A stretch of DNA of 64,000 nt from Chloroflexota bacterium. Its GTDB lineage: Bacteria > Chloroflexota > Limnocylindria > P2-11E. This document shows, piece by piece, positions 7,154-31,133 of the stretch; the first letter of the stretch is position 1; each line of letters starts with the position of its first letter. The stretch covers positions 51,611-115,610 of the forward strand of contig DAIDAP010000032.1 in the NCBI GenBank assembly GCA_027310565.1, in the 5' to 3' direction. Below the pieces are notes generated by a model. That model worked only from the letters and a program-made list of their open reading frames with translations. It searched no databases and had not been told where the DNA came from. The translations under genes were made by a program, and so were the position numbers.

Positions 7154-8281
7154 TCAGGACGAGCGAGCGCGCGACGATGCCGGGGGTGCGCGGCGGAGGC
7201 CGAGCTGATCGATCCAGGCGCGCGACCGCCCGGTGACGACGACCGGGACGCGACGGAGCTCCGACGCCCGCTCGATCCCCGTGAGGAAGACCGCGGTGCG
7301 CAGCTCGAGCTCGAACGATGCCAGCCACTCCATGCAGGCATCCTCTCCCGCGAGCGCGGCCTGCAGCAGCGGGCGCCCGACGCCGACGAGCGTCGCCCCG
7401 AGGGCGAGCGCCTTCGCCGCGTCGAGGCCGCTGCGCACGCCGCCGGTCGCGATGAGCGGGAGGCCGGCGCCCGCGGCGGCGCGCACCGCGACCGCGGTGG
7501 GCACGCCCCAGTCGCGGAACCGCTCGCCGAGGCTCATGCGCAGCGTGTCGCCGGCGGCGCGCGCGCGCTGCGCCTCGATCGCCGCGAACGACGTCCCGCC
7601 CACGCCGCCGACGTCCACCGCCCGCACGCCGAGGCGGCGCAGCCGGCGGGCGACCGGGAGCGAGATGCCCGCGCCGGTCTCCTTCGCGATCACCGGCACC
7701 GGGCAGGACCGCACGAGCGCTCGGACCGCGGCCTCTGAGCCGCGCGCCCGCGTCTGCCCCTCCGGCTGCACCGACTCCTCGAGGTAGTTGAGGTGCAGCG
7801 CGAGCGCGTCGGCGCGGACCATCCGCACGATGCGGTGGATGTCCTTCGCGACGAGCGCGGGCTCGCGGTCCTGCCGCACGAGCTGCGAGATGCCGACGTT
7901 CGCGATGACGAACGCGTGCGGCGCCGCCTCACGGACGACCGCGTACGTGGGCGCGAGCACCGGGTCGCGCAGGGCGGCGCGCTGGCTCCCGACGCCGATC
8001 GCGATGCCCGCCCGCTCGGCGACGCGGCCGAGCAGCTCGTTGATCGCGATGGCCCGGCCGTGCCCGCCGGTCATCCCGGAGATCACCAGCGGCAGCCGCA
8101 GCGTGCGCCCGAGGAAGCGCGCCGAGAGGTCGATCGCCGCGGCATCCACGGTCGGCAGCGCGTCGTGCAGCAGGTGGACGTCCTCCCACCCGGCCGTCAC
8201 GCGCGTCTCGACATCGCCCTCGGCAGCGAGCTGCAGATGCTCCCCCTTGCGCCGGGCGATCTGCTCCGCGTCCTTGCTCAA
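7154..8281 (-). CDS. fni: Type 2 (FMN-dependent) isopentenyl-diphosphate delta-isomerase
   Basis: RKGEHL...LPLVISGMTGG...IAKETGAGIS...VDVGGVGGTSFAAIE...IATGGVRSGLD motifs. Start is TTG 8281 or upstream (the ORF reaches 8374). Confidence 0.85.
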   Translation of the reverse strand: MSKDAEQIARRKGEHLQLAAEGDVETRVTAGWEDVHLLHDALPTVDAAAIDLSARFLGRTLRLPLVISGMTGGHGRAIAINELLGRVAERAGIAIGVGSQRAALRDPVLAPTYAVVREAAPHAFVIANVGISQLVRQDREPALVAKDIHRIVRMVRADALALHLNYLEESVQPEGQTRARGSEAAVRALVRSCPVPVIAKETGAGISLPVARRLRRLGVRAVDVGGVGGTSFAAIEAQRARAAGDTLRMSLGERFRDWGVPTAVAVRAAAGAGLPLIATGGVRSGLDAAKALALGATLVGVGRPLLQAALAGEDACMEWLASFELELRTAVFLTGIERASELRRVPVVVTGRSRAWIDQLGLRRAPPASSRARSS

Positions 8282-8309
8282 TCTCCGGAGCCGCTCCTCG
8301 CTCGTGCCC

Positions 8310-9536
8310 TCACCGAAAGACGCCCTGCGCCTCCAACGCCGCGTACTCTGCACCGTCCAGCCGCAGCACGTCACGCATGACCTCCGCGGTGTGCTGGCCG
8401 AGGAGCGGGCCGGCCCGCTGCGGGCCCTGCTCGTCCTCCGACAACACGAACGGCGCGGCCATGAGCCGGACGTCGCCGATGACCGGATGCGCCGCGGTGC
8501 GCCACGCGCGGCGGTGCAGGAGCTGCGGGTCGGCGAACAGCTCGCCGATGCTCGCGACCGGCGCCGCGCGCAGGCCGCGGGCGCGCAGCCGCGCGACGGC
8601 GTCCTCGCGGGTCAGCGTGCGGGTCCACTCGGAGATGCGCTCGTCGAGCCACGCCTCCCGCTCCCGGCGGCCGGCGGCCGCGGCGAGCGCCGGCTCGCGC
8701 GCCCACGGGGGATCCCCCATCGCCTCGCCGAGGCGCGGCCACTCCTCGTCGGACCACACCGAGAGCGCGACCCACGCGTCGGGCTGCGCCGCCGTGGCGC
8801 GCGAGGGATAGACGCCGTGCGGCACGGCGACCCGGTCGCGGTTCCCAGCGCGCGCCGGCGTCGCGCCGTTCGCGGCGCGCTCGAGGAGCGCGGGCGCGAC
8901 GAACTGCAGGCCCGCCTCGTACTGCGAGAGATCGATGTCGCACCCCCGTCCGGTGCGCGCGCGCCGCTCGAGCGCGGCGAGGATCGCGACGACGCCGTAC
9001 CCCACGGCGATGTAGTCGATGTACGGGCCGTAGAGGATCGCCGGCGTCGCGCCGGGCTCGCCGAGCAGCGCGGTGAACCCGGCGAGCGCGGTGAGCTGGC
9101 TGCCGTACCCGGGATGCTGCGCGTGCGGCCCGGTCTGGCCCTGGTTGCAGCTCGAGAGGATCACGAGATCGTCGCGCGCCGCGCGCAGCGCCTCGCGCGA
9201 CAACCCGCGCCGCGCCAGCGTGCCGGCGGGGAACGACTCGATGAGCACGTCGGATGCCGCGACCAGCCGCAGCACGAGCGCGACGGCGCGCGGGTTCTTG
9301 AGGTCGAGCGTGACCGAGCGCTTTCCCGCGTTGTAGAAGGAGAACATCGCCGCGCCGTCCGGCGACGGCCGGTTGTCCTTGAACGGCGGGTAGGTGGAGC
9401 GGAACGGGTCGAGCACCGTCGCCGACTCCACGTGGATGACGTCGGCGCCGTGCGCCGCGAGGTACGTCCCGACGAGAGGCCCGGCGGCGGCCCAGCCGAG
9501 CTCCACGACGCGGACCCCGGCGAGCGGCGCGGTCAC
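8310..9536 (-). CDS. Class III CoA-transferase (CaiB/BaiF family), subunit 2
   Basis: N-terminus VTAPLAGVRVVELGWAAAGPLVGTYLAAHGADVIHVE. GTG 9536 overlaps the upstream stop (GTGA). The ORF-track extension to 10523 is a shadow. Confidence 0.85.
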   Translation of the reverse strand: MTAPLAGVRVVELGWAAAGPLVGTYLAAHGADVIHVESATVLDPFRSTYPPFKDNRPSPDGAAMFSFYNAGKRSVTLDLKNPRAVALVLRLVAASDVLIESFPAGTLARRGLSREALRAARDDLVILSSCNQGQTGPHAQHPGYGSQLTALAGFTALLGEPGATPAILYGPYIDYIAVGYGVVAILAALERRARTGRGCDIDLSQYEAGLQFVAPALLERAANGATPARAGNRDRVAVPHGVYPSRATAAQPDAWVALSVWSDEEWPRLGEAMGDPPWAREPALAAAAGRREREAWLDERISEWTRTLTREDAVARLRARGLRAAPVASIGELFADPQLLHRRAWRTAAHPVIGDVRLMAAPFVLSEDEQGPQRAGPLLGQHTAEVMRDVLRLDGAEYAALEAQGVFR

Positions 9537-10711
9537 GCCGTCACCGCGCTGCGAAGCGTCTCGGCCCACACCTCGCGGTCGTGCTCGCCGAGACGCGGCG
9601 GCGGCCGGCGGACCGCCGGGCGCTCGCCGTCGAAGAGCGCGAAGCCGCCGGCGAACGTGAGCGTCCGCCCGTCGATCGCGACGTCCTGCCAGAACGAGCG
9701 CGCGCGCAGCTGCTCGTCGTCGAAGATGTCGCCGGCGTCGGCGACCGGGTACCCGAGCATGTTCCGCGCGATCACGCCGGCGAAGAACTCGCGCTTGGTG
9801 AGCGTGCTCAGGAACGCGCCGACCTCCCCCTCGAGCGCGTCCACCTCGGCCTGCGTCAGCGTGCGGTTGTCGAAGGCGTCCCAGTCGATCGCCCGGAAGA
9901 GCGGCGCCGCGTGGTCCCGCTCCGCCATCCACGCGCAGAGCATCCGGCCGGTGTGGCGTCCGATCGGTCCGCCCTGGATCGCGAACGACACGTGCCCGTC
10001 CGCGCAGGGCCAGACGTTGCGGAAGCGCGCGCCGACGATGCTGCGTCCGAGAAGGTACGGGCCGAGCCGGACGTGCTCCTCGCGCGCGACGTCGGCGAAC
10101 ACCGCGGCGGGCGGGTGGACGGTGATCATGCTCTGCTGCCCCGAGACGTCGACGTGCTGGGCGCGCCCGACGCGGTCGCGGCCGAGGATCGCGACGAGCG
10201 CGCCGGCCGCCGCGTACATGCCGGTCCAGAACGGCGACTGCGGCAGCGTCGTCCGGACCGGCGCGCGGCCTGGCTCGCCCGCGAGCCACAGGCTCCCGCC
10301 GGCGGCGGTGACCTCGAGGTCGGACGCGGGCACCCCCGCGAGCGGACCGGTCGTGCCGTACGGCGTGACGGTGACGACGACCTGACGCGCGCCGCACCCG
10401 AGCGGATCGACGATCGGCTCGGACTGCACGACGAGGTCGGCGCGACGGACGAGGGCGTCGCGGCGGGCCGCGTCGGCGGGGTCGAGCACGACGCCGCGCT
10501 TGTTCGCGTTCAGCGCCATCCACAGCAGGCCGCGGTCCGGATGCGCCGCGCCGCCGGCGAACGGCGGCGTGCGCCGCACGGGATCGCCCGCCGGCGGCTC
10601 ACACTTGACGACGTCGGCGCCGAGGTCCGCCAGCGTCCGCCCGCAGTGCGCGGCCGCGGCGGCGCCCCACGGGTCGTCCGAGGCGAGCTCGACGACGCGC
10701 AGATCGAGCAC
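9533..10711 (-). CDS. Class III CoA-transferase (CaiB/BaiF family), subunit 1
   Basis: MLDLRVVELASDDPWGAAAAAHCGRTLADLGADVVKCEPPAGDP... is family III-like. It starts 5 nt after the UbiD-like stop. Confidence 0.85.
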   Translation of the reverse strand: MLDLRVVELASDDPWGAAAAAHCGRTLADLGADVVKCEPPAGDPVRRTPPFAGGAAHPDRGLLWMALNANKRGVVLDPADAARRDALVRRADLVVQSEPIVDPLGCGARQVVVTVTPYGTTGPLAGVPASDLEVTAAGGSLWLAGEPGRAPVRTTLPQSPFWTGMYAAAGALVAILGRDRVGRAQHVDVSGQQSMITVHPPAAVFADVAREEHVRLGPYLLGRSIVGARFRNVWPCADGHVSFAIQGGPIGRHTGRMLCAWMAERDHAAPLFRAIDWDAFDNRTLTQAEVDALEGEVGAFLSTLTKREFFAGVIARNMLGYPVADAGDIFDDEQLRARSFWQDVAIDGRTLTFAGGFALFDGERPAVRRPPPRLGEHDREVWAETLRSAVTA

Positions 10712-10716
10712 CTGCC

Positions 10717-12333
10717 CTAGCGTCCGCTCTTGGCCAGCACCTCAGCCCACGACTGCGTCTTCATCAGGGCCTTGCCGCCGGCGATCTGGTCCGGGTCGAA
10801 CCACGCCGCGGGGTCGACCCGGTCGATCGGGTACACCGGCCGCATGAAGTCGTTCTCGAAGCCGTAGGGGACCGTGGCGTCGATGGCCATGCCGCCCTCG
10901 AAGCGCGTGTTCATCGCGGTCCACTGCGCGTTCCCGGCGCTGAGCCGCTGCTCCGGGATGAAGGTCTGGCCCGCGCCGCCGGGGGTCGGGCTCCACACGT
11001 CGTCGCGCGGGTTCACGCGCGTCGTGAGCGACCAGATGATGTCGTCCATCGAGTAGATGTCGACGTCGCTGTCGACCGCGATGCACAGACGCAGGCCCGA
11101 CGAGCAGCTCATCGCCGCCGCGAGGAAGTTGCGCACGAACCCGTCGTCGGTCTTGAGGCGCTTGCGCACCTGGAGGATCGCGCCGGCCCAGTCGGTCATC
11201 GGGAACGGGATGTTCACGTCCTGGATGAGCCCCGGCTGGATGCGCTCGCACAGCTCGAAGAACGCGGCCTCGCGCACCGTCGTGTCGATGTTGTTGCAGT
11301 CGTACATGTGCACGCCCATCGGGTAGATGAACGGCCGCTCGGCGCGCCTGCGCATGGTGATCGCGGTGACGTGGAAGGTCGGCGCCTTGTACGCCTTGCC
11401 CATGTACCCGGCCCACTCGGGATGGAAGTGAAAGCGTCCCTGGACGTCGGCCTTCTCCGCCTCCGCGGTCTCGTAGCGCTTGTCGCGCGGGTGCAGGTAG
11501 CCCTCGAGCGAATATTCCGCGTCCGCGACCGACCACGCGTCGACCGTCGCGGCCTTGGTGATCCGCACCGGGTAGCCCTGCACCGCGCCGGCCGCGCCGA
11601 GCTCGTCGCCGCCGCGCGGCAGGACGACGTAGTCGAACCCGCCGCCGGCGAGCAGCGTCGCCGCCGCCGGCAGCCCGAAGTTCACGGTGAGCGGCACCGG
11701 CTCGTCGCGGTAGTACTTCGTCATCACCTGCCACATGTGCGAGCCGGGCGAGATCTGGAACGTGCCGACGTTGCCCCAGCGGAAGTTCATGCGGTTGTAG
11801 CCGATGTGGCTCCCGCCCCAGAACCGATCGCCGACGACGACGCTGTTGCCCGAGCCGATCGTGATCTCGGACTCGAGATGGGTGTGGCGGATCGGGAGGA
11901 TGTACTTGTTCACGTCGAGGTCGTCGGTGACGACCTCCTGCATGACCGGGGCGTCGGACCGCGCGACCTCCTCGTTCGGGATCGGGTGCGTGAGCGCGTG
12001 CGCGAGCCTGCGCGTCCGCTCGGTCCGGTCCGCCCAGCCGAACATCCGGTCGACGATGTCCATGTTCGCGAAGAAGTTCGTGATCGCGCGGACGTGCGGG
12101 TAGCCCTTGACGTTGTTGAAGAGGATCGGGTAGCTGCCGTCGAAGTGCTTCTGGATCCCGGTGAGCTGCAGGTCGCCCGACACCATCGTGTCCGTCTCGA
12201 GGAGCAGACCCTCGGCGCGGAGCCACTCGACCGTCGCCGGAAGCGAGCGCAGCGCCTCCTTGGGCGCCGGCGGACCCTGCGGATCCTTCAGCCGCGTCCC
12301 TGCGCGCTTGAGCTCGGCCTGCGCCGTCGCCAT
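10717..12333 (-). CDS. UbiD-family (prFMN-dependent) decarboxylase/carboxylase, divergent member (UbiD-1, 538 aa)
   Basis: UbiD-like throughout (PILFNNVKGYP..., ...TVNFGLPAAATLLAGG...). The usual GPFGEfTGYY motif reads HPEWAGYMGKAY. ATG 12333 lies 6 nt after GGGAGG. Confidence 0.8.
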   Translation of the reverse strand: MATAQAELKRAGTRLKDPQGPPAPKEALRSLPATVEWLRAEGLLLETDTMVSGDLQLTGIQKHFDGSYPILFNNVKGYPHVRAITNFFANMDIVDRMFGWADRTERTRRLAHALTHPIPNEEVARSDAPVMQEVVTDDLDVNKYILPIRHTHLESEITIGSGNSVVVGDRFWGGSHIGYNRMNFRWGNVGTFQISPGSHMWQVMTKYYRDEPVPLTVNFGLPAAATLLAGGGFDYVVLPRGGDELGAAGAVQGYPVRITKAATVDAWSVADAEYSLEGYLHPRDKRYETAEAEKADVQGRFHFHPEWAGYMGKAYKAPTFHVTAITMRRRAERPFIYPMGVHMYDCNNIDTTVREAAFFELCERIQPGLIQDVNIPFPMTDWAGAILQVRKRLKTDDGFVRNFLAAAMSCSSGLRLCIAVDSDVDIYSMDDIIWSLTTRVNPRDDVWSPTPGGAGQTFIPEQRLSAGNAQWTAMNTRFEGGMAIDATVPYGFENDFMRPVYPIDRVDPAAWFDPDQIAGGKALMKTQSWAEVLAKSGR

Positions 12334-12367
12334 CTCATGCCTCCCGCGAGGAAGTCCCTCGACCGCG

Positions 12368-12396
12368 ATAATGGTATGACCATTCGTCCAGGTCAA
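12368..12396 (-). promoter_or_regulatory. Sigma-70-like promoter of the UbiD-1 operon: -35 TTGACC, 17-nt spacer, -10 CATTAT
   Basis: Minus strand reads TTGACC tggacgaatggtcatac CATTAT. The spacer and -10 are covered by the dyad at 12370-12384. Confidence 0.5.
12370..12384. promoter_or_regulatory. Predicted GntR/FadR-type operator, site 1: AATGGTATGACCATT
   Basis: Perfect 6-bp arms AATGGT/ACCATT with a 3-nt spacer, in the divergent UbiD-1/bicupin-1 gap. Confidence 0.6.
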
Positions 12397-12425
12397 CCGC
12401 GCACGGCAGCGCGGAGGCTGCCTAG

Positions 12426-12440
12426 AATGGTCAGACCATT
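12426..12440. promoter_or_regulatory. Predicted GntR/FadR-type operator, site 2: AATGGTCAGACCATT
   Basis: Perfect arms. Overlaps the bicupin-1 ATG (12427). Confidence 0.6.
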
Positions 12441-13509
12441 GGCCGACAAGCTCCTCCTCGACCCGTACCTCGACTGGGTGAAGGGCGAGGGGATCCCCGT
12501 GTACGAGGACTTCGGCTTCGACCTGCCGGCGCTCGAGGTACGGCCGTGGTCGCGCATGGACGCGCTCGGCGCGTACGTCCACTGCCTGGGACGCGGGGAC
12601 TGGGTGAACATGTACGTCTGCGAGATCCCGCCCGGCGGGCAGACGTCGCCCCAGCGGCACCTCTTCGAAGAGGTCGTGTACGTCCTCTCCGGACGGGGCA
12701 GCACCAGCGTCGAGACGCCGGGTGGTGAGCGCACGTTCGAGTGGCACACCGGGAGCCTGTTCGCGCTGCCGCTCAACGCGCGGTACCGGCACTTCAACGG
12801 GAGCGGGCGCGAGGCGGCGCGCATCGTGTCGACGACGGACCTACCGATGATGCTCGACGTCTTCCGCGACGACGACTTCATCTGGCGCAACGACGCGGTC
12901 TTCGCCGAGCGCTTCGGCGACGAGCGGCACTACCGCGGCGAGGGGACGTTCGTCCCGACGCGCCCGGGGCGCCACATGTGGGAGACGAACTTCGTTCCCG
13001 ACCTGCGCACGTTCGAGCTGCGGACGTGGAAGGAGCGCGGCGCGGGCGGCAGCAACATCATGTTCGTCCTCGCCGAGGGCACGATGCACGCGCACATGAG
13101 CGAGATGCCGGTCGGCACGTACAAGAAGGGCCATCGCCACGGCGCGGACTTCCACGTCATGACGGTCACCGGGACCGGGTACAGCCTGTACTGGTACGAA
13201 GGCGAGAACGAGCTGCGCCGCTTCGACTGGAAGCACGGCGCGGTATTCGCGCCGACCGACATGCTCTACCACCAGCACTTCAACACCGGCGCCGAGCCCG
13301 CGCGCTACCTCGCGACCGCGTTCGGCGGCCTGCGCTACCCGACGCTCGCCGACAAGCGCAAGACGTTCATGGGCATGGACGTGAGCGTGAAGGAGGGCGG
13401 CCGACAGATCGAGTACGAGGACGAGGACCCTCGGATCATCCGCATGTACGAGGAGGAGCTGCGGCGCAGCGGCGTGCCGTCGAAGATGCGGGAGCTCATC
13501 CGGACCTAA
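12427..13509 (+). CDS. Bicupin protein 1 (two cupin barrels; gentisate-dioxygenase-like architecture, function unknown)
   Basis: GGAGG lies 9 nt upstream. Cupin motifs PGGQTSPQRHLFEEVVYVLSGRG / RYRHFN and KKGHRHGADFHV / LYHQHFNTG. Confidence 0.75.
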   Translation: MVRPLADKLLLDPYLDWVKGEGIPVYEDFGFDLPALEVRPWSRMDALGAYVHCLGRGDWVNMYVCEIPPGGQTSPQRHLFEEVVYVLSGRGSTSVETPGGERTFEWHTGSLFALPLNARYRHFNGSGREAARIVSTTDLPMMLDVFRDDDFIWRNDAVFAERFGDERHYRGEGTFVPTRPGRHMWETNFVPDLRTFELRTWKERGAGGSNIMFVLAEGTMHAHMSEMPVGTYKKGHRHGADFHVMTVTGTGYSLYWYEGENELRRFDWKHGAVFAPTDMLYHQHFNTGAEPARYLATAFGGLRYPTLADKRKTFMGMDVSVKEGGRQIEYEDEDPRIIRMYEEELRRSGVPSKMRELIRT

Positions 13510-13610: not shown

Positions 13611-14645
13611 ATGAGCGAGGATCAGCGCGTGTTCCTCCGCGGTCTCGACTCGGCGTCGTACGGACTGAAGGAGCAGCGCGCGAGACAGCGCGCCGCCCCG
13701 CGCGTCCGCCGCGCGGGCACCGTCGTGGACGACGCGCGCGTCGGCCACTCCGGCGACGACGATTCGGGACGCTCGAAGACGTACTGGATGCTCGGACCGG
13801 GCGACGACGACTTCCTCACCCAGACCCTCCAGGTCCACTTCGTCGAGCTCATGCCCGGCGGGACCAACCACGGGCACGGCCACCAGAACGAGGCGCACTT
13901 CTACATCCTCGAAGGCAAGGGGTACGAGATCCACGACGGAAAGCGCTACGAGTGGGAGAAGGACGACCTCGTCATCGTGCACACCGACAGCGTGCACAAG
14001 CACCACAACCTGTCGGCGACGGAGCGGGCGCTCGCGATCGTGCTCAAGGCGAAGGCGACGTGGATGATGCTCGGCCTGTGGCAGCAGGGACGGCCCGCGC
14101 CGTTCCCCGACGGCGACCGCTACGAGGCGCGGCGGGACTGGTCGGAGCTGTGGAGCCCCGGCTGGGAGGACAAGAAGAAGGTCATCCGGCGCGCCGACAC
14201 GACGTGGGAGACGACGCGCGACGGCCGGGTCCGGGTGATCCTCTCACCGGACCGCACCGACGCCCGGACACACAGCCTCGATGTGTACCAGCAGGAGATC
14301 GCGCCGGGCGGCCGCTCGGGGAGGCACTGGCACATGGCGGACGAGGCGGTGTACGTCCTCGCCGGCAGCGGCCACAGCCTGCACTGGGAGGTCGAGGCGG
14401 AGATCGCCGACCGGTACTACGCGCGGATCGCGAAGGAGCCGACACGCTGGGAGTTCTCCGCCGGCGACCTGCTCTACGTCCCACAGAACACGGTGCACCA
14501 GCACTTCAGCACCGGGACGGGGCCGCTCCTCCTCCTGTCGGCGCAGAACCGCCTGTTCAGGCACCTGGGCTACGACCGGGTCGTGCACCTCGAGGACGCG
14601 CCCGAGCACCGGGAGCGCGGCGCCGCGGCCGCCTCCACCCGGTAA
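13611..14645 (+). CDS. Bicupin protein 2 (both barrels with HxH...E / H metal motifs)
   Basis: GAGGAG RBS. GGTNHGHGHQNEAHFYILEG...VHKHHN and GGRSGRHWHMADEAVYVLAG...VHQHFSTG. Confidence 0.8.
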   Translation: MSEDQRVFLRGLDSASYGLKEQRARQRAAPRVRRAGTVVDDARVGHSGDDDSGRSKTYWMLGPGDDDFLTQTLQVHFVELMPGGTNHGHGHQNEAHFYILEGKGYEIHDGKRYEWEKDDLVIVHTDSVHKHHNLSATERALAIVLKAKATWMMLGLWQQGRPAPFPDGDRYEARRDWSELWSPGWEDKKKVIRRADTTWETTRDGRVRVILSPDRTDARTHSLDVYQQEIAPGGRSGRHWHMADEAVYVLAGSGHSLHWEVEAEIADRYYARIAKEPTRWEFSAGDLLYVPQNTVHQHFSTGTGPLLLLSAQNRLFRHLGYDRVVHLEDAPEHRERGAAAASTR

Positions 14646-14654
14646 CGCCGCCGC

Positions 14655-15245
14655 TCAGGACACGCGGGGCCGGTCGGGACCCGTCCAACGGCGGAAGAGC
14701 GCGTGCTCGACGCCGAGCTGGTCGAGCGCCTTCCCCACGCTGTGGTCGACGACGTCCATGAGCGTCTTCGGCTTCTGGTAGAAGCCCGGCACGGGCGGGA
14801 GGATCACCGCCCCCGCGAGGGTGAGCTCGCGCATGAGCCGCAGGTGCGTCGCGTTCAGCGGCGTCTCCCGGACCATGAGCACGAGCTTGCGCCGCTCCTT
14901 GAGGTGCACGTCCGCGGCACGGACGATGAGGTTGTCGTCCAGCGCGTTCGCGATCGCCGCCATCGTGCGGATGCTGCACGGCGCGACGAGCATCCCGCCG
15001 GTGAGGAACGTCCCGCTCGCGAGCGGCGCCGCGAGGTCCTTCTCGTCGTGCACCACGTCGGCGAGCGCGACGACGTCCTCGTACGAGCGATCGGTCTCGT
15101 ACGCGATCGTCGCCCTCGCGCCGCTCGACACGACGAGGTGCAGCTCGAGCTCGCGTCGCAGGCGGATCGTCTCGAGGGCGCGGATCCCGTAGATCGCGCC
15201 GGACGCGCCGGAGATCGCGACGACGATCCGCGAGGCCGCGGTCAC
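14655..15245 (-). CDS. ubiX: Flavin prenyltransferase UbiX
   Basis: RIVVAISGASGAIYGIRALE...MLVAPCSIRTMAAIANALDDNLIVRAADVHLKERRKLVLMVRETPL is typical UbiX/Pad1. Confidence 0.9.
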   Translation of the reverse strand: MTAASRIVVAISGASGAIYGIRALETIRLRRELELHLVVSSGARATIAYETDRSYEDVVALADVVHDEKDLAAPLASGTFLTGGMLVAPCSIRTMAAIANALDDNLIVRAADVHLKERRKLVLMVRETPLNATHLRLMRELTLAGAVILPPVPGFYQKPKTLMDVVDHSVGKALDQLGVEHALFRRWTGPDRPRVS

Positions 15246-16009
15246 GACGAGCGGCGGCGCGACCGGACGAGCCGCGGCAGCGCCGGCGTCGGGCGCTCGG
15301 CGGACTCCGCGCGCTCCGCCAGGCTGCGCCGCAGCCGCTTCTCGAAGTCCTCGAGGTGCGTGACCATGATCTCGCGCGCGCCCTCGCCGTCCCGCCGGCG
15401 CACCGCCTCCACCAGCTCCTCGTGCGCCTTCTGGGTGGCGCGGCCGGTCTTCTCGTCGCGCAGGTCGCGGATCGCCGGGACGAGCAGCTGGCGGTACGCG
15501 TCCACCGTGGCCTCGAGGACCTCGTTCCTCGCCGCGCGCGCGAGCACGACGTGGAAGTCCATGCTCGCGTCGGCGTGCGTGATCGGCTCGCGCAGCAGCG
15601 GACGCGAGGCCTCGACGCTCTGCACCAGGCGGCTGAGCGCGCCGGCGTCGGCGCGCTGTGCGGCGAGCTGCGCGGTGGCGGCCTCGACGATGGTGCGGGC
15701 CTCGGCCAGCTCGGAGAGCGTCATGCGCTTCAGCCGGATCATCGTGGAGATCGATTCGGCGACGCGGTCGGTGTTCGCGTCGGCGACGAACGCGCCGCCC
15801 ATCGCGCCCACCTTCACCCGGATGAGACCGCGCGCCTCGAGCACGCGCAGCGCGTCGCGCACCGTGATGCGCGAGACGCCGAACTGCTCGGCGAGCTCGC
15901 GCTCGGACTGGAGGCGATCACCCGCCGCCAGCTCGCCGCCGAAGATCGCGCGCTCGATCTGGGTGACGATCTCACCCGACGCGCGCGATTGCCGCACCGG
16001 TGTGAACAC
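15242..16009 (-). CDS. GntR-family transcriptional regulator, FadR subfamily (FCD C-terminal domain)
   Basis: wHTH motif LQSERELAEQFGVSRITVRDALRVLEARGLIRV plus an all-helical C-terminal domain. Confidence 0.85.
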   Translation of the reverse strand: MFTPVRQSRASGEIVTQIERAIFGGELAAGDRLQSERELAEQFGVSRITVRDALRVLEARGLIRVKVGAMGGAFVADANTDRVAESISTMIRLKRMTLSELAEARTIVEAATAQLAAQRADAGALSRLVQSVEASRPLLREPITHADASMDFHVVLARAARNEVLEATVDAYRQLLVPAIRDLRDEKTGRATQKAHEELVEAVRRRDGEGAREIMVTHLEDFEKRLRRSLAERAESAERPTPALPRLVRSRRRSS

Positions 16010-16029: not shown

Positions 16030-16731
16030 CTACCGCAGGTCCGCGAGGGCGCCCGCGACCCGCGCCTTCTCGAGCAGGTACGTCCAGGTCTTCTCGACGA
16101 CGAAGCGGCTCGCGAGCATCTCGCGCACGCGGCGGATCTCGTCGGGTGTGTACGGCCTGACCGCCCCGAGCTGAGCCGCGAGGTGGTTCCGCTGAGCGCT
16201 CTCCTCGAGGTAGAGCGCGGCGGTGACGCACTCCCGCACGTCGCCCCCGACGACGAGCGCGCCGTGCCCGCGCAGCAGCACCGCGCTCGCGGCGGCCATG
16301 TCGCGCGCGACGGGCAGGCCGAGCTCGTCGGTGCGGATGAGCTCGGGGTTGTCGTGCACGGGGATGGGCCCGCCGAAGAACGCGCCGGCGTTCGACGCGG
16401 GCTCGAGCGGCCTCCCGGCGACCGCGAAGGCCGTCGCGTACAGCGGATGGAAGTGCGCGACGCTGCGCACCTCCGGCTTCGCGCGGTACGCCGCGAGGTG
16501 GAGCGCCGTCTCGGACGGCGGCAGCGCCTCGGAGAGGCGCTGCCCGTCGGAGACGCGCACCGCGGCGATGAGCTCGGGCGTCACCGTGAGCCGGCTCGCG
16601 CCCCGGTCGCAGATGTGGACGACGTCGCCGTCGCGGATGGAGATGTGGCCGTGCATGTCGAACAGCCCCGCGACCGCGAGCACCCTCGTCGCGATCGCCG
16701 TCTCGACGCGGAGATCGGTGGCCACCTTCAT
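16030..16731 (-). CDS. Class II aldolase/adducin-domain protein
   Basis: LFDMHGHISIRD...ETALHLAAYRAKPEVRSVAHFHPLYATAF...LLRGHGALVVG. ATG 16731 follows GGAGGGG. Confidence 0.75.
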   Translation of the reverse strand: MKVATDLRVETAIATRVLAVAGLFDMHGHISIRDGDVVHICDRGASRLTVTPELIAAVRVSDGQRLSEALPPSETALHLAAYRAKPEVRSVAHFHPLYATAFAVAGRPLEPASNAGAFFGGPIPVHDNPELIRTDELGLPVARDMAAASAVLLRGHGALVVGGDVRECVTAALYLEESAQRNHLAAQLGAVRPYTPDEIRRVREMLASRFVVEKTWTYLLEKARVAGALADLR

Positions 16732-17291: not shown

Positions 17292-17306
17292 AATGGTAAT
17301 AACATT
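17292..17306. promoter_or_regulatory. Predicted GntR/FadR-type operator, site 4: AATGGTAATAACATT
   Basis: 11 of 12 arm positions match. Lies in the 55-bp divergent gap between the flavin reductase operon and UbiD-2. Confidence 0.55.
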
Positions 17307-17337: not shown

Positions 17338-18813
17338 ATGGCGACCACAGTGCGCACGGAGACCGCGGTCCCGACGGACCTGCGCGAATGGCTCCAGCGG
17401 GTCGACCGGCTCGGCGAGCTGCAGACGGTGACCGGCGCGACCGCCGAAGAGGACATCGGCATGGCGACCGAGCTCCTCGGGCGCACCCGCCCCTCCAAGG
17501 CGACGATCTTCGACGAGATCCCCGGCCACCGGAAGGGCTGGCGCGTGCTGTCGAACGCGCTCGGCTCGTTCGGGCGCGTCGCGGTGACGCTGGGGCTGCC
17601 GACGGACGCGTCGCCGCACGAGCTCGTCCGCCTCTGGCAGGAGCGCGTCCGGAAGGGCATCCCGACGATCGCGGCCGAGGTCGTGAAGGACGGCCCGGTC
17701 TTCGAGAACGTCATGCGCGGCGCCGAGGTCGACCTCCTGAAGTTCCCCGCGCCGAAGTGGCACGAGTTCGACGGCGGCCGGTATCTCGGCACCGGCAGCT
17801 TCGACGTGACCATGGACCCCGACGAGGGCTGGGTGAACCTCGGCACCTACCGGGTGATGGTCCAGAACAGGAACACGCTCGGCTTCTACATCTCGCCCGG
17901 CAAGCACGGGCGCCAGCACCGCGACAAGTGGTTCGCCAAGGGCGAGAAGATGCCGGTCGCGTTCGTCCCGGGCGGCGACCCGCTCCTGTTCCTCGCCGCG
18001 TGCACCGAGATCCCGTACGGGGTCAGCGAGTACGACTGGGCGGGCGGCGTGCGCGGCGTGCCGTACCGCGTGGTGAAGGGTCCGGTGACCGGCCTGCCCA
18101 TCCCCGCCGACGCGGAGATCGTCGTCGAGGGGTTCGCCGACGCGGCGGACAAGATGAGCGAGGGTCCCTTCGGCGAGTGGACCGGCTACTACGCCTCGGG
18201 CGAGCGCGAGGAGCCGGTCATGCGCGTCGAGGCGGTCTACCACCGCAACGACCCGATCGTCCTCGCGTCGCCGCCGAACGTGCCGCCCGACGAGCAGTCC
18301 TTCTACCGCGCGTTCATGCGCTCGGCGCGGCTGCGCGGCGACCTCGAGGCGGCGAGCATCCCCGGCATCGTCGGCGTGTGGTGCCACGAGGTCGGCGGTT
18401 CCCGCCTCTTCAACGCGATCTCCATCAGCCAGCGCTACGCGGGGCACGCGCGCCAGGTCGGACACGCCGCGGCGACCGTGCACACCGGGGCGTACCTCGG
18501 CCGCTACACGGTCGTCGTCGACGACGACATCGACGTGATGGACCTCGAGGAGGTCATGTGGGCGGTGTGCACGCGCTCGGACCCGGCCGAGTCGATCGAC
18601 ATCATCCCGCGCATGTGGTCGGGCCCCCTCGACCCGCGCATCCACCCCGACCGCAAGGGCCTCTCGTCGCGCGCGGTGATCGACGCGACACGGCCCTGGG
18701 AGTGGCGCGACCGCTTCCCGCGCTCGCAGCTGCCGACGCCGGAGACGAAGGCGAAGGCGCTCGCGAAGTGGGGCTGGCTCGTCGGCAAGGGAGAGCGTCC
18801 GAAGGGCCGCTAG
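17338..18813 (+). CDS. UbiD-family decarboxylase, canonical motifs (UbiD-2, 491 aa)
   Basis: AGGAGG RBS at 17325-17330. MSEGPFGEWTGYYAS motif. UbiD-like throughout. Confidence 0.85.
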   Translation: MATTVRTETAVPTDLREWLQRVDRLGELQTVTGATAEEDIGMATELLGRTRPSKATIFDEIPGHRKGWRVLSNALGSFGRVAVTLGLPTDASPHELVRLWQERVRKGIPTIAAEVVKDGPVFENVMRGAEVDLLKFPAPKWHEFDGGRYLGTGSFDVTMDPDEGWVNLGTYRVMVQNRNTLGFYISPGKHGRQHRDKWFAKGEKMPVAFVPGGDPLLFLAACTEIPYGVSEYDWAGGVRGVPYRVVKGPVTGLPIPADAEIVVEGFADAADKMSEGPFGEWTGYYASGEREEPVMRVEAVYHRNDPIVLASPPNVPPDEQSFYRAFMRSARLRGDLEAASIPGIVGVWCHEVGGSRLFNAISISQRYAGHARQVGHAAATVHTGAYLGRYTVVVDDDIDVMDLEEVMWAVCTRSDPAESIDIIPRMWSGPLDPRIHPDRKGLSSRAVIDATRPWEWRDRFPRSQLPTPETKAKALAKWGWLVGKGERPKGR

Positions 18814-19599: not shown

Positions 19600-20580
19600 T
19601 CACTCCGGGTAGACGACGGTGTCGTAGCCGAGGAGCTTGAACAGACGGTTCTGCCCGGAGAGCAGCCGCAGCGGCTCGCGGCCGGTGTTGACGTGCTGGT
19701 GCACGGTGTTCTGCGGGATGTAGACGACGTTCCCCTGCTCGAACTCCCAGGTCCCCGGCTCCTTCGCGACGTGCGCGTAGTAGCGGTCGGCGATCTCCGC
19801 GGCGACGTCCCACTGCCGGCTCTCGCCGCGGCCGGACTCGACGTACAGGACCTCGTCGGCCATGTGCCAGTGCTTGGCCGAGCGCGCGCCGGGCGCGATC
19901 TCCTGCTCGACGAGGTCGACGCTCGCGATGCGGATGTCCGGCTGCGCACCCGAGACGATGACGCGGACGCGCCCGTCGCGCGTGTCCTCCCACCTGGTCG
20001 CCGATCGCTTCACGACCTTGCGCTTCGCCGCGGCGCCGGGTGTCCAGAGCCGCGACCAGTCGGTGCGCGGCCCGTAGCGGTCGGCGTCCTCGAGCGGTCC
20101 GCTCCTCGCCTGCTGCCAGAGCCCGAGGAAGAGCCATAGCGCCTTGGCCTTGAAGATGATCCCGTGGACCTCGCGGGCCGCGTCGGTGTTGAAGTGCTGG
20201 TGCACGCTGTCGGCGTGCACGACCATCGCGTCGCCCGCCTCCCAGTCGTAGCGCTCGCCGTCGTGGATGTCGTAGCCCGTCCCGTCGAACACGTAGAAGA
20301 GCGCCTCGTTCTGGTGACCGTGCCCCTCGTTCTTGCCGCCGGGCGCGAGGTCGACGGTGTGGACCTGCAGGCTCTGCGTGTAGAAGGGGTCGTCCCCCGG
20401 ACCGACGAGCCACTCCGCCCACGACTCGGCGCCGATGCCCTCGTAGCCCGCGGTCGTCACGCCGTGTCCGACGACGAACCCCTCGCGCCTCACGCGCGGC
20501 GCGCCGTGCTGGAGCCTGCGCTGCTCCGCGAGGCCGTAGCGCTCGGACGTGAGGCCGCGCAGGAACACGCGCTCAGGCAT
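19600..20580 (-). CDS. Bicupin protein 3 (paralog of bicupin 2)
   Basis: Long runs shared with bicupin 2 (VFLRGL..YGL.EQR, GHGHQNEA.FY...GYxIHDGxRYxWE, HWHMADE..YV..G.G, IPQNTVHQH). Confidence 0.8.
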   Translation of the reverse strand: MPERVFLRGLTSERYGLAEQRRLQHGAPRVRREGFVVGHGVTTAGYEGIGAESWAEWLVGPGDDPFYTQSLQVHTVDLAPGGKNEGHGHQNEALFYVFDGTGYDIHDGERYDWEAGDAMVVHADSVHQHFNTDAAREVHGIIFKAKALWLFLGLWQQARSGPLEDADRYGPRTDWSRLWTPGAAAKRKVVKRSATRWEDTRDGRVRVIVSGAQPDIRIASVDLVEQEIAPGARSAKHWHMADEVLYVESGRGESRQWDVAAEIADRYYAHVAKEPGTWEFEQGNVVYIPQNTVHQHVNTGREPLRLLSGQNRLFKLLGYDTVVYPE

Positions 20581-20700: not shown

Positions 20701-20715
20701 AATGGTATAACAATT
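20701..20715. promoter_or_regulatory. Predicted GntR/FadR-type operator, site 5: AATGGTATAACAATT
   Basis: 11 of 12 arm positions match. Lies in the divergent gap between bicupin 3 and the ABC substrate-binding protein. Confidence 0.55.
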
Positions 20716-20762: not shown

Positions 20763-21872
20763 ATGAGCAGGGACCCACGCAAACTCGCCGTCGTGCTCGT
20801 CGCCATGGGCATCCTCGCGAGCGCCTGCGGCGGGGGCGCGGCGGCGCCGTCGGCGGCGCCGTCGGCCGCGCCGGCGACGAGCGCGGCTGCCACGACCGTC
20901 GCGCCGACCGCGAATCCGAACGAGCTCAGCGCGGACGTCATCAGCAAGGCCAAGGCCGAGGGCAAGGTCGTCCTCTACACCTCGCTGGAGACGACCGACG
21001 CCGAGACCGTCCTCAAAGACTTCGCGAAGGCGTACCCGGAGATCAAGGTCAACCTCAACCGCAAGTCGAGCTCGGCGATCCTCACGCAGTTCGCCACCGA
21101 GGCGAAGGCCGGCACGTACCTCGCCGACATCCTCGAGACCGGCGGGATCGATGTCGCGGGACCGATCAAGGACGGCTACACGCAGCCGTTCGCCGACAAG
21201 GTCCCCGCCGCGAAGGCGCTCCCCGCGGGCTTCGTCCAGCTGAACGGGCAGTTCGTGAACGCCCGCTCGGCGGTGGAGACTTTCGCCTGGAACACGACCC
21301 TGGTGAAGGCCGGCGAAGAACCGAAGAGCTGGCAGGACCTGCTCGACCCGAAGTGGAAAGGCCAGATCCTCGTCGAGGCGAGCGACTGGGACTTCATGCA
21401 GGGCCTCGCCAAGGGCCTCTTCAAGGGCGACGAGGCAAAGCTGCGCGACTACTTCACCAAGCTGGCGGCCAACAAGCCGTCGCTCATCGACGGACACAGC
21501 AACATGCTCGCCGCGCTCGAGGCCGGGCAAGCCAAGGTCGCGTTCGGCATCCGCGGCGACCAGGTGCAGGGCGACCTCGACGCGAAGAAGGTGCCGCTCG
21601 CCTGGAACAAGGACACCATCATGCTGCGGCTGCAGGGCCCGGTGATGGCCAAGGGCGCGCCGAACCCGAACGCGGCGCTCGTCTTCCTCCAGTGGTACCT
21701 GTCGAAGGACGGGGCCCAGAAGTCGCTCGCCGCCATCAAGCGCATCCCCGCGTACACGGCGCTCGCGGACCCGGTGTTCAAGTTCACCAACACGTTCACC
21801 TCGGGACCGGAAGACGCCCCGGAGCTGCCCAAGTACCAGGCGCTCTGGAACGAGCTCATCGCGAAGAAGTGA
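20763..21872 (+). CDS. ABC transporter substrate-binding lipoprotein (Fe3+/AfuA/PotD-type PBP2 fold)
   Basis: Lipobox LASAC and an Ala/Pro/Ser linker. GGAGG RBS. Confidence 0.8.
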   Translation: MSRDPRKLAVVLVAMGILASACGGGAAAPSAAPSAAPATSAAATTVAPTANPNELSADVISKAKAEGKVVLYTSLETTDAETVLKDFAKAYPEIKVNLNRKSSSAILTQFATEAKAGTYLADILETGGIDVAGPIKDGYTQPFADKVPAAKALPAGFVQLNGQFVNARSAVETFAWNTTLVKAGEEPKSWQDLLDPKWKGQILVEASDWDFMQGLAKGLFKGDEAKLRDYFTKLAANKPSLIDGHSNMLAALEAGQAKVAFGIRGDQVQGDLDAKKVPLAWNKDTIMLRLQGPVMAKGAPNPNAALVFLQWYLSKDGAQKSLAAIKRIPAYTALADPVFKFTNTFTSGPEDAPELPKYQALWNELIAKK

Positions 21873-21903
21873 TCGCGAGCCTGATCGCCCCGGCAGGGAC
21901 GAG

Positions 21904-23646
21904 GTGACGACGAAGGCGGTCGGTGTCGCCGCGGCGGGCGCGCGGGCGCGCGGCCTGCCGCGGCCCGACCGCGGCGTGCTCGTCGTCGTCGGGCTCGCGC
22001 TCGTCCTCCTCTACCTCATCGCCTACCCGTTGGCGATGCTCCTGCTCGGCAGCTTCGGCGTCGGCGGCGAGATCCTGAAGGGCTTCACGCTCCAGAACTA
22101 CGCCGACGCCTACGGCAACGCGCGCATCGTCCGGCTGTTCTTCAACTCCCTGGTCTACGCGCTCGGCGTCGCCCTCCTCGCGCTGACGCTGGGCACGGGC
22201 GCCGCCTGGATCGTCGAGCGCACCAACACGCCGTTCCGCAGGGTCTTCTTCGCGCTCGCGCTGGTGCCCATCATCCTGCCCGGCATCGTGAACACGATCG
22301 CCTGGGTGTTCCTGCTCAGCGGGCGCATCGGCCTACTGGCGCGCGGGATCGCGACGCTCTTCGGGCAGAGCGAGGCGCCCTTCACCGTGTTCTCGCTGTG
22401 GGGGATGATCTGGGTCGAGGGGCTCTACCTCTCGCCGCTCGTCTTCCTGCTCATGACCGCGGGCTTCAAGAGCATGGATCCGTCGCTCGAGGAGTCGGCG
22501 ATGACCAGCGGCAGCGGGACGCTCTCCACGCTGCGGCGAGTGACCCTGCCGCTGATGCTCCCGGCGCTGGCCTCGGTGACCCTCATCATCGCCGTGCGCG
22601 GCCTCGAGTCGTTCGAGGTCCCGCGGATCCTCGGCACCCCCGCCGGCATCCCCGTGTTCACCGGCGAGATCTACCGGGCGCTGCAGATCTACCCGCCGGA
22701 CTACGGGCTCTCCGGCGCGCTCTCGGTGACGCTCTTCCTGATCAGCGTCGCGGGCATCCTCTTCTACCAGCGGCTCACGCGGCAAGCTGAGCGCTTCGCG
22801 ACGGTGACCGGGAAGGCGTTCCGGCCGCGGCTCATCGACCTCGGCCGCTGGCGGTTCTTCACCGCCGGACTGCTGGTGGTCTACGTCCTGCTCATCGTCG
22901 TCCTGCCGTTCCTGGGGCTGCTCTTCGTCTCGGTGGTCCCCTACTACGCGCCGGACCTCACGCTGCTGAGCCAGGCGACGCTCGACAACTACCGTCAGGC
23001 GTTCGGCTGGACGGGGGTGCAGCGGAGCGCGACGAACAGCCTCATCCTCGCCACGATCTCGGCGACGCTGGTGACCGCCATCACCGCCGTCATCGCCTGG
23101 GTCATCACGCGCACGCGCATCCCGGGACGGCGCTTCCTCGACACCCTGGCGTTCATCCCGATCACCATCCCCGGCGTCGTGCTCGGCGTCGCGATGATCC
23201 TCCAGTACCTGTCGCCGGCGTTCCAGGTGATCCCGATCTACGGCACGCTCTGGATCCTCGTCATCGCCTACCTCATCCGGTACCTGCCCTACGGGATGCG
23301 CGCGAACAGCGCGTCGATCCTCCAGGTCCACCGGGAGCTCGAGGAGGCCGGACAGGCCGCGGGCGCGTCGTGGTGGACGACGTTCCGGCGGGTGACCATC
23401 CCGCTCCTCCGGCCGGCCCTCGTCGCGGCGTGGCTCTACGTCTTCATCGTGTCGGTCCGCGAGCTGGGCGCCTCCGTGCTGCTGGTGAATCAGGACACGA
23501 ACGTGCTCGCGGTCACCATCTTCGAGCAGTACGAGATCGGGCAGTTCAACCGGGTGGCGTCGATCTCGGTCATGCTCGTCGTCACGCTCGTCGTCGTCGT
23601 CACCATCGTGCAGCGCGTCTCCTCACGGTTCGGCGTCCGGGAGTAG
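21904..23646 (+). CDS. ABC transporter permease, duplicated (two MetI-like domains, FbpB/ThiP-type)
   Basis: 580 aa with about 12 TM segments and two EAA-like loops. Confidence 0.8.
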   Translation: MTTKAVGVAAAGARARGLPRPDRGVLVVVGLALVLLYLIAYPLAMLLLGSFGVGGEILKGFTLQNYADAYGNARIVRLFFNSLVYALGVALLALTLGTGAAWIVERTNTPFRRVFFALALVPIILPGIVNTIAWVFLLSGRIGLLARGIATLFGQSEAPFTVFSLWGMIWVEGLYLSPLVFLLMTAGFKSMDPSLEESAMTSGSGTLSTLRRVTLPLMLPALASVTLIIAVRGLESFEVPRILGTPAGIPVFTGEIYRALQIYPPDYGLSGALSVTLFLISVAGILFYQRLTRQAERFATVTGKAFRPRLIDLGRWRFFTAGLLVVYVLLIVVLPFLGLLFVSVVPYYAPDLTLLSQATLDNYRQAFGWTGVQRSATNSLILATISATLVTAITAVIAWVITRTRIPGRRFLDTLAFIPITIPGVVLGVAMILQYLSPAFQVIPIYGTLWILVIAYLIRYLPYGMRANSASILQVHRELEEAGQAAGASWWTTFRRVTIPLLRPALVAAWLYVFIVSVRELGASVLLVNQDTNVLAVTIFEQYEIGQFNRVASISVMLVVTLVVVVTIVQRVSSRFGVRE

Positions 23647-23655
23647 GAGGGAACC

Positions 23656-24771: not shown

Positions 24772-24774
24772 GCG

Positions 24775-30693: not shown

Positions 30694-31133
30694 GCCGCCG
30701 TCCTGGCCAGACACGCGCCGAACTCGCGCAGGAGCTGGTCGGCCTTGCGCTGGATCAGCGGCTGCCCGAGCTCGCCGATCCGCCCGGCGACCTGCAGGTC
30801 GCTCTCGATCCGCAGCGCACAGCCCTCGCCGGCGCGCGCGAGCGCGATCTCGACGCTGGCATGCACGGATCCCCCGAGGCGCGCCTCCTTCGCGTCGGCG
30901 CGCAGCGTCGCCCGGTGCGCGGCGTCGTCGCGCGCGACGATCGCGACCTCGCCGGAGAACGACAGGCGGACGGGTCCGACCTGCACCGCGAGGTCGCCAC
31001 GGAAGCGGTCCTCGCCGGCGCCGCTCACGCCGCTCACGCCGGGCACGCACGCGGCGGCGCGCGGCACGTCCATCACCACCGTCCAGACCCGCTCGACCGG
31101 TACGGGCACCGTCGACGAGTGCGCGAGCTTCAT
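30690..31133 (-). CDS. CoxG-like SRPBCC protein
   Basis: MKLAHSSTVPVPVERVWTVVMDVPRAAACVPG... ATGA overlaps at both ends. Confidence 0.7.
   Translation of the reverse strand: MKLAHSSTVPVPVERVWTVVMDVPRAAACVPGVSGVSGAGEDRFRGDLAVQVGPVRLSFSGEVAIVARDDAAHRATLRADAKEARLGGSVHASVEIALARAGEGCALRIESDLQVAGRIGELGQPLIQRKADQLLREFGACLARTAA

Follow-up and report, generated by a model that had tools for sequence, protein, structure and literature searches.

A predicted phthaloyl-CoA decarboxylase operon with a built-in isopentenyl-diphosphate isomerase in a Limnocylindria-type Chloroflexota bacterium

We analyzed a 64,000-nucleotide stretch of a Chloroflexota bacterium genome (GCA_027310565.1, contig DAIDAP010000032.1, positions 51,611 to 115,610; hereafter, the window), which contains a gene for a UbiD-family enzyme, UbiD-1, followed by two class III coenzyme A (CoA)-transferase genes, T1 and T2. 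Together with a fourth gene, idi2, which was absent from the original prediction for this locus, these genes probably constitute an operon, pcd-T1-T2-idi2, for the CoA-dependent conversion of o-phthalate, or of a very close ortho-dicarboxylate, to benzoyl-CoA. The module appears to be a member of a known system from a lineage new to it; its substrate and activities are predicted from homology, and the putative additions to that system are an isopentenyl diphosphate (IPP) isomerase built into the operon, a systematic split between active and inactive transferase subunits, and a conserved candidate operator. The four genes are arranged head to tail in the following order:

pcd (UbiD-1), 10717..12333, minus strand: 538 aa, phthaloyl-CoA decarboxylase-type UbiD enzyme
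T1, 9533..10711, minus strand: 392 aa, SptA-like class III CoA-transferase subunit, catalytic Asp replaced (Pro160)
T2, 8310..9536, minus strand: 408 aa, SptB-like class III CoA-transferase subunit with catalytic Asp174
idi2, 7154..8281, minus strand: type-2 (FMN-dependent) isopentenyl-diphosphate isomerase, last gene of the operon

Because the G+C content of the window is 72%, long spurious open reading frames (ORFs) occur in every region, and the coding frame was chosen by the G+C content of third codon positions, which is 0.96-0.97 on the minus strand for pcd, T1, and T2. The long plus-strand ORFs lying over the module (7788-10385 and 11308-13509) were rejected as shadows, which are usual in high-G+C DNA. 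The start codon of pcd, ATG at 12333, is preceded by a GGGAGG ribosome-binding site, and M1 of UbiD-1 is invariant among 13 homologues. Direct inspection of the sequence bore out the tight gene spacing described originally: the TAG stop of pcd is followed by 5 nt (ggcag) and the GTG start of T1 at 10711, the TGA stop of T1 and the GTG start of T2 overlap as GTGA (4 nt), and idi2 starts 28 nt beyond the end of T2. The Pfam domains UbiD_N, UbiD, and UbiD_C were identified in UbiD-1, and CoA_transf_3 was identified in both T1 (180 bits) and T2 (323 bits). A terminator-like hairpin inside T2 (9345-9367) was taken as a chance occurrence (2 found vs 0.7 expected). The window sequence occurs in runs of a mine-drainage metagenome and was not found in any RNA run; fragments 80-95% alike to pcd, T1, T2, and idi2 are present in metatranscriptome contigs from soil, sediment, and groundwater, which, at 100-500 nt, are too short to settle the gene junctions.

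By its sequence, UbiD-1 is a member of the clade of the structurally solved phthaloyl-CoA decarboxylase (Pcd), an enzyme that converts phthaloyl-CoA to benzoyl-CoA and requires prenylated flavin mononucleotide (prFMN), K+, and Fe2+. In a search of solved structures, residues 28-538 of UbiD-1 matched the Pcd of Thauera (PDB 8PMK, 8OZ5, 8P02) with 770 bits (E = 1e-230), whereas no free-acid UbiD decarboxylase reached more than a sixth of this score; the next enzymes were the AroY protocatechuate decarboxylases (127 bits), with Fdc1, HudA, HmfF, UbiD, and PhdA scoring lower. Pairwise identity to UbiD-1 amounts to 62.5% for Thauera Pcd and 62% for the Aromatoleum aromaticum EbN1 enzyme, and all three proteins carry HFHPEWAGYMGKAY, at residues 302-315 of UbiD-1. 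The original prediction had treated the motif around the catalytic Glu as divergent, compared with EGPFGEWTGYY in UbiD-2, a second UbiD-family protein encoded in the window, and had taken this divergence as a sign of a nonstandard substrate. The motif instead proved to be a near-invariant family signature: FHPEWAGYMGKAY (UbiD-1 residues 303-315), which replaces EGPFGEW.GY, is kept in 82 of 82 Pcd family members, Thauera Pcd included, bar two single conservative changes, and 146 of the 509 alignment columns are invariant in this set. The catalytic Glu of the GEW.GY motif is retained in UbiD-1 as E306, and F301 stands in place of the first Glu of the E-x4-E motif (FHFHPE vs EGPFGE in UbiD-2, aligned by eye). 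The phylogenetic placement that had been proposed as a check was carried out as a neighbor-joining tree of the Pcd family rooted with UbiD-2; UbiD-1 is nested in the Pcd clade, within a Limnocylindria subclade and away from UbiD-2, from which this compact family is separated by a long branch, and the characterized Pcd enzymes are nested among Betaproteobacteria.

As far as homology tells, T1 and T2 together make up a heteromeric class III CoA-transferase of the same type as SptAB and BbsEF. SptAB is the name given (PMC11659651) to the succinyl-CoA:phthalate CoA-transferase, whose activity has been demonstrated experimentally in A. aromaticum EbN1 (PMC13040137). T1 corresponds to the first EbN1 transferase (44% identity, E = 8e-85) and T2 to the second (46% identity, E = 2e-116), whereas the closest solved relatives are the two subunits of the benzylsuccinate CoA-transferase, BbsE for T1 (PDB 9FN0 chain A, 129 bits) and BbsF for T2 (chain B, 225 bits). 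Alignment of T1 and T2 with Frc and YfdE of Escherichia coli placed the catalytic Asp of the reference, Frc D169, at D174 in T2 and at Pro160 in T1. This Asp is present in 61 of 61 homologues of T2 and in none of 57 homologues of T1, and the EbN1 pair and BbsF/BbsE are split into Asp-present and Asp-absent subunits in the identical manner. Therefore, the pair consists of one catalytic and one probably structural subunit, with T1 being the one that probably lacks catalytic activity.

To assess the conservation of the module, one-genome-per-species representatives were scanned with two Pcd-specific peptides, yielding at least 587 confirmed places with matches to the Pcd module; the counts over 80 loci given here and below refer to the best 80 of these, and Pcd loci of other genomes are designated by L numbers. 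A homologue of T1 and/or T2 was found within 3.5 kb of the Pcd-like gene in 70 of the 80 loci, with 7 of the 10 exceptions being located at contig ends, and both transferase genes are present in 57 loci. This conservation bears on a different assignment of the three genes, under which UbiD-1 would be an ordinary free-acid decarboxylase of the AroY, VdcC, or gallate type, and the transferases would be unrelated neighbors acting on aliphatic acids (oxalate, formate, succinate, or glutarate). Such an assignment would fit the public names of close homologues, which, apart from 'UbiD family decarboxylase', include '4-hydroxy-3-polyprenylbenzoate decarboxylase' and 'gallate decarboxylase subunit C', as well as the best NCBIfam matches of T1 and T2, namely, succinate-glutarate, mesaconate, and formyl-CoA transferases. 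However, these matches fall far below the cut-offs (196 vs 750 bits for the transferase), no NCBIfam model reaches its cut-off for UbiD-1 (VdcC, 126 vs 650 bits), and clustering of UbiD-1 with free-acid decarboxylases is contradicted by the score difference between Pcd and AroY (770 vs 127 bits) and by the position in the tree. Together with the translational coupling of the three genes (5 nt and a 4-nt overlap), their joint conservation in 70 of the 80 loci, and the aromatic-acid enzyme BbsEF as the best solved relative of the transferases, this makes the free-acid assignment highly improbable.

The preferred assignment, to the CoA-dependent phthalate route, gains from comparison with the characterized systems. 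On plasmid 2 of EbN1, the gene order is UbiX, Pcd, and two CoA-transferases with a 4-nt overlap, followed by a tripartite ATP-independent periplasmic (TRAP) transporter. The window likewise contains a pcd gene followed by two class III transferase genes with a 4-nt overlap and a ubiX gene nearby, the Pcd proteins of Thauera and EbN1 are 62-62.5% identical to UbiD-1 over the full length and share the signature, and one transferase subunit has the catalytic Asp, whereas the other lacks it. The likeness of the module to the anaerobic o-phthalate system that was originally drawn is thus upheld by the full-length Pcd match, the correspondence of the transferase pairs, and the presence of a true UbiX. 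The two loci also differ in several respects. The host of the window is a Limnocylindria-type Chloroflexota bacterium from a mine-drainage metagenome rather than a proteobacterium; its ubiX belongs to a separate operon with a GntR regulator, whereas in EbN1, UbiX is encoded directly upstream of Pcd; its type-2 IPP isomerase is encoded by the fourth gene of the operon, whereas the type-1 idi of EbN1 is located nearby and unlinked; the neighboring transporter is an ATP-binding cassette (ABC) importer rather than a TRAP system; the transferases are only 44-46% identical; and the module is chromosomal and syntenic within its lineage, in contrast to the location on a conjugative plasmid, flanked by insertion sequence (IS) elements, in EbN1. 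The same EbN1 plasmid (locus L081, 74091-83182 of the record) carries a second, 99% identical copy of Pcd, with its own UbiX and an IclR regulator, accompanied by an ABC transporter, a UbiD-2 orthologue, and a type-1 idi gene, and adjoining the canonical UbiX-Pcd-SptAB-TRAP cluster.

More distant comparisons delimit the module further. BbsEF (9FN0) is the closest solved pair and has the Asp in the T2-type subunit, BbsF, alone, but serves in anaerobic toluene catabolism, has no link to UbiD, and is much less similar to T1/T2 than is the EbN1 pair. The canonical free-acid enzymes UbiD, Fdc1, AroY, VdcC, HmfF, and PhdA share the three-domain fold family and the catalytic Glu with UbiD-1, which, unlike them, lacks the first Glu of E-x4-E and matches them with six-fold lower scores; UbiD-2 is of the canonical type. 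The (iso)phthalate systems of Desulfosarcina cetonica and Syntrophorhabdus aromaticivorans follow the same logic, with CoA activation followed by prFMN-dependent decarboxylation to benzoyl-CoA (PMC13040137; PMC9516798). The sulfate reducers and fermenters activate their substrate with an AMP-forming (ATP-dependent) CoA ligase, whereas the module in the window would do so with a transferase, and just a 40-aa relic of a ligase is found there. The isophthaloyl-CoA decarboxylase belongs to another UbiD clade, near the phenolic acid decarboxylase subunit C (PMC8269228).

The cofactor of Pcd could be supplied from within the same island, through the following gene:

ubiX, 14655..15245, minus strand: flavin prenyltransferase making prFMN (NF004685, 253 bits vs cut-off 188; TIGR00421, 229 vs 109)

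This gene is located 2.3 kb from pcd and overlaps the upstream GntR regulator gene by 4 nt. The isomerase encoded by idi2 matches TIGR02151 with 356 bits (cut-off 281) over profile positions 1-337 of 338, and the distance between T2 and idi2 ranges from -20 to +41 nt in 14 related loci. Elsewhere, idi2 is found in other positions around the module, namely, between T2 and UbiD-2 in L018, upstream of Pcd in L040, and between a UbiD-2 paralogue and Pcd in L084 (59% identity), and on the EbN1 plasmid, a nonhomologous type-1 idi gene lies beside the IclR-UbiX-Pcd cluster. The simplest reading of this association is that the operon isomerase would raise the pool of the dimethylallyl donor for prFMN synthesis. 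The M23 peptidase and GGDEF genes downstream of idi2 are likewise syntenic within Limnocylindria, and therefore, part of the idi2 linkage in this class may represent inherited gene order. No report of a link between idi and Pcd was found in a literature search; the repeated recruitment of IPP isomerases beside Pcd and UbiX provides a testable lead on the source of the prenyl donor for prFMN.

The presence of idi2 within the operon could also be taken to mean that the operon is biosynthetic, with idi2 and UbiX marking a prenylation or isoprenoid pathway, or with Pcd running as a carboxylase, given that UbiD enzymes are reversible in principle. The region contains no terpene synthase, no mevalonate genes, and no prenyltransferase besides UbiX; the neighbors are of a catabolic type (an importer, a GntR regulator, and dioxygenase-like cupins), and in EbN1, an idi gene lies beside a similar cluster with Pcd and UbiX. 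A biosynthetic function thus seems very hard to credit.

In the catabolic scheme that we favor, T1/T2 would move CoA from succinyl-CoA to phthalate, with T1 serving as the structural partner, and Pcd would take up the unstable phthaloyl-CoA at once and decarboxylate it to benzoyl-CoA by means of prenylated FMN. UbiX would make the cofactor, and the operon isomerase would boost the supply of dimethylallyl (di)phosphate. The GntR regulator would repress the operon until the substrate is present and would control also UbiD-2, three bicupins, and the ABC importer.

The regulatory part of this scheme is suggested by the 105-nt intergenic region between pcd and the divergent gene cupA, which contains two perfect AATGGT-N3-ACCATT palindromes. 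The regulatory elements and the candidate regulator are as follows:

Promoter-like site of the pcd operon, 12368..12396, minus strand: -35 TTGACC, 17-nt spacer, -10 CATTAT; consensus match only
Operator-like palindrome O1, 12370..12384, no strand assigned: AATGGTCATACCATT, overlapping the -10 element
Operator-like palindrome O2, 12426..12440, no strand assigned: AATGGTCTGACCATT, at the start of the divergent cupA
Degenerate operator copy, 17292-17306: two mismatches, 32 nt before the likely UbiD-2 start, ATG 17338
Degenerate operator copy, 20701..20715, no strand assigned: AATGGTATAACAATT, two mismatches, between cupC and the ABC transporter operon
GntR/FCD (FadR-subfamily) regulator, 15242..15997, minus strand: Pfam GntR and FCD domains, candidate binder of the palindromes

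Two promoter-like sites were found, compared with 0.1 expected in shuffled sequences, and four copies of the operator-like palindrome are present in the window vs 0.1 expected by chance. The palindrome looks like an operator of the FadR subfamily of GntR regulators, whose consensus we take to be of the TGGT-N3-ACCA type. It recurs upstream of the Pcd gene in L001-L017 and L025 and before the UbiD-2 or GntR gene in several loci, and the adjacency of GntR and UbiX is kept in L003, L008, L012, L013, and L017. The distribution of the copies suggests a single candidate regulon that would extend over about 20 kb (7.1 to 26.5 kb) and in which the conserved putative operator would connect pcd-T1-T2-idi2 with UbiD-2, the second UbiD decarboxylase, and with bicupins. 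The accessory genes of this island are listed below:

cupA, 12439..13509, plus strand: bicupin (Cupin_2), divergent from pcd and sharing its control region
cupB, 13611..14645, plus strand: bicupin with HxH..E motifs in both domains
Aldolase-fold gene, 16030..16731, minus strand: class II (Aldolase_II, 117 bits), first gene of an AldII-GntR-UbiX operon
UbiD-2, 17338..18813, plus strand: canonical UbiD-family decarboxylase, with a ribosome-binding site and ATG at 17338
cupC, 19600..20568, minus strand: bicupin, paralogue of cupB
ABC importer (binding protein, fused permease, ATPase), then a thiamine diphosphate (ThDP)-dependent enzyme, 20763..26532, plus strand: candidate regulon member

For every accessory protein, the scores stay below the curated family cut-offs. 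CupA shows a remote profile match to gentisate 1,2-dioxygenase (3BU7, E = 1e-11), and its AlphaFold2 model (mean pLDDT 70) retrieved only generic bicupins (vicilins, oxalate decarboxylase, and MncA) in Foldseek searches, with a TM score of ~0.45. The aldolase-fold protein is weakly similar to the 3,4-dihydroxyphthalate decarboxylase PhtC (79 bits vs cut-off 200), and genes of this class II fold adjoin UbiX in several phyla (L007, L023, L041, L069). The closest solved relative of UbiD-2 is the phenazine-1-carboxylate decarboxylase PhdA (7PDA, 364 bits), and UbiD-2 is 54% identical to the product of the third UbiD gene of EbN1 plasmid 2. Both the ABC transporter type and the ThDP enzyme of the window recur beside Pcd and UbiD-2 in L084.

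The Pcd family is widespread. A look-up of public assemblies returned no entry with exactly the UbiD-1 protein. The proteins nearest to UbiD-1 (88-92% identity) come from metagenome-assembled genomes of Chloroflexi and Candidatus Limnocylindria, and the best 80 loci, in which Pcd is 62-91% identical, represent Chloroflexota, Dormibacterota, Actinomycetota, Acidobacteriota, and Alpha-, Beta-, and Gammaproteobacteria. The published descriptions consulted place Pcd in Beta-, Gamma-, and Deltaproteobacteria only (PMC8269228; PMC13040137), and a literature search found no report of Pcd in Chloroflexota. As judged by tblastn, the most common neighbor apart from the transferases is a UbiD-2 orthologue (39 of the 80 loci, in five phyla), followed by UbiX (33 loci), cupA (26 loci, Alphaproteobacteria included, at 58-63% identity), GntR (23 loci), and IDI2 (16 loci). 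Neighbor clustering added a EutA-like protein in 13 loci and a PNPOx-like protein in 11 proteobacterial loci. The EutA-like protein, an ASKHA ATPase of the reactivase type (Pfam EutA, 273 bits), is encoded in L003, L008, L013-L017, L021-L024, L030, L043, and L084 and is absent from the window. The PNPOx-like protein, of 156 aa and with an FMN-binding fold, is encoded directly 3' of T2 in L056, L057, L059, L068, L072, L074, and L076, and also in L029, L035, L053, and L058, and could have a flavin-related role. In L084 (GCA_040961205.1), four UbiD-family genes surround Pcd-T1-T2, along with an IDI2 gene, and a ThDP enzyme gene overlaps the UbiD-2 orthologue (61% identity).

Several observations weigh against a dedicated phthalate operon. 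Searches for benzoyl-CoA pathway genes (box, bcr, bam) came back empty, both across the 64-kb window and, with unbiased neighbor clustering, over the 10 kb around the module in the 80 related loci. Seemingly co-regulated UbiD-2, three dioxygenase-like bicupins, the aldolase-fold protein, and the ThDP enzyme are superfluous for the conversion of phthalate to benzoyl-CoA, which hints at a wider or different substrate. The product of IDI2 is a diphosphate, whereas a study of Azoarcus supplied the monophosphate. T1 and T2 are just 44-46% identical to the characterized pair, and therefore, their donor and acceptor specificity is not secured by sequence. Finally, the Pcd family tracks phylum boundaries at 62-70% identity, which argues that it is far older than industrial phthalates.

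Because of the accessory genes and the age of the family, we keep a second reading, under which the enzymes may in nature act on a compound related to phthalate, or on phthalate derived from more complex natural aromatics. The chemistry would be the same, but the substrate might be a phthalate bearing a hydroxy or methyl group, a pyridine ortho-dicarboxylate, or a benzene tricarboxylate that UbiD-2 has first decarboxylated, and the module would form the end of a larger aerobic funnel employing UbiD-2, the aldolase-fold protein, the bicupins, and the ThDP enzyme. Consistent with such a funnel, operator copies precede UbiD-2 and lie between cupC and the ABC-ThDP operon as well as between pcd and cupA, UbiD-2 orthologues accompany Pcd in five phyla and in EbN1, four UbiD-family genes surround Pcd in L084, and the recurrent neighbor cupA has a remote kinship to gentisate 1,2-dioxygenase; the modest identity of the transferases to SptAB and the ancient, phylum-tracking Pcd family point in the same direction. 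However, the active-site motifs of Pcd are invariant between Thauera and UbiD-1, a high specificity for o-phthalate has been reported for the characterized transferases (PMC13040137), the third and fourth operator copies contain two mismatches each, and the accessory proteins, being below curated cut-offs, have only guessed roles. On balance, we consider a substrate other than phthalate or a very close ortho-dicarboxylate to be unlikely, and o-phthalate remains the preferred substrate.

A more far-reaching proposal, which we advance tentatively and regard as rather unlikely, concerns the Pcd/SptAB module as a whole. Rather than a recent proteobacterial adaptation to man-made phthalate, it might be an ancient, vertically inherited module of soil bacteria, spanning at least five phyla. 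It might act as the last step of an oxygen-tolerant, multi-decarboxylase funnel for natural aromatic polycarboxylates, placed under one GntR regulon (UbiD-2 paralogues, the aldolase-fold decarboxylase, the ThDP enzyme, and dioxygenase-like bicupins) and having its own supply of the prenyl donor through independently recruited IDI enzymes, type 2 here and type 1 in Aromatoleum.

Phthalates are among the most abundant man-made pollutants, and phthalate is a breakdown product of plasticizers. In the literature consulted, the oxygen-independent CoA route is described for few degraders only, namely, denitrifying, sulfate-reducing, and gammaproteobacterial ones, and a complete module in Limnocylindria-type Chloroflexota would point to a much larger set of potential phthalate degraders in soil and sediment. 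Because the public names of the Pcd homologues inspected are generic or wrong, annotation-based surveys would overlook them. From the depth of the family, the enzyme pair would long predate industrial phthalates, a point that bears on the origin of 'xenobiotic' pathways.

The original prediction had further connected the module to a BoxB-like benzoyl-CoA oxygenase homolog and a benzoate-CoA-ligase relic about 20 kb away. The former connection was not supported: the gene at 33396-34736 on the minus strand scores 54 bits against a BoxB cut-off of 499 and encodes a 446-aa diiron protein that is distant from both BoxB and PaaA (Pfam PaaA_PaaC, 33 bits). It has no BoxA or BoxC partner, is surrounded by genes for acetyltransferases and a molybdenum hydroxylase, and has no operator copy nearby. 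The relic, by contrast, was confirmed as a 40-aa fragment of an aryl-CoA ligase (32463-32582, minus strand), ~20 kb from the module, and shares 72% identity with the C-terminal portion of the aryl-CoA ligase encoded beside Pcd in L014. The molybdenum hydroxylase, a three-subunit enzyme of the xanthine dehydrogenase family (large, FAD, and 2Fe-2S subunits; 28582-32442, minus strand), is encoded beside an FAD oxidase just outside the operator-marked island, and similar 2Fe-2S subunits are encoded near Pcd in L014, L016, L053, and L058.

On the other side of the module, ~4 kb past the end of the operon, the segment 946-3311 (minus strand) carries an IS21-family transposase gene, istA (188 bits vs cut-off 160), and an unannotated ORF (946-1893) in the position expected for the istB helper. 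The intervening M23 and GGDEF genes are also syntenic in related Limnocylindria loci, which speaks against a recent mobilization of the module. No structured RNAs or tRNAs were found in a search of the window. Beyond 28 kb, the window is occupied by housekeeping genes (methionyl-tRNA synthetase, the SUF system, NAD synthase, and others). A run of three ORFs with strong coding character and no Pfam match (444, 320, and 235 aa; 41156-44153, minus strand) is located between the genes for a GCS2-family ligase and an inorganic pyrophosphatase, and the SufB gene of the SUF operon (55327-57894, minus strand) is split by an intein that includes a LAGLIDADG homing-endonuclease domain (Pfam Intein_splicing, LAGLIDADG_3).

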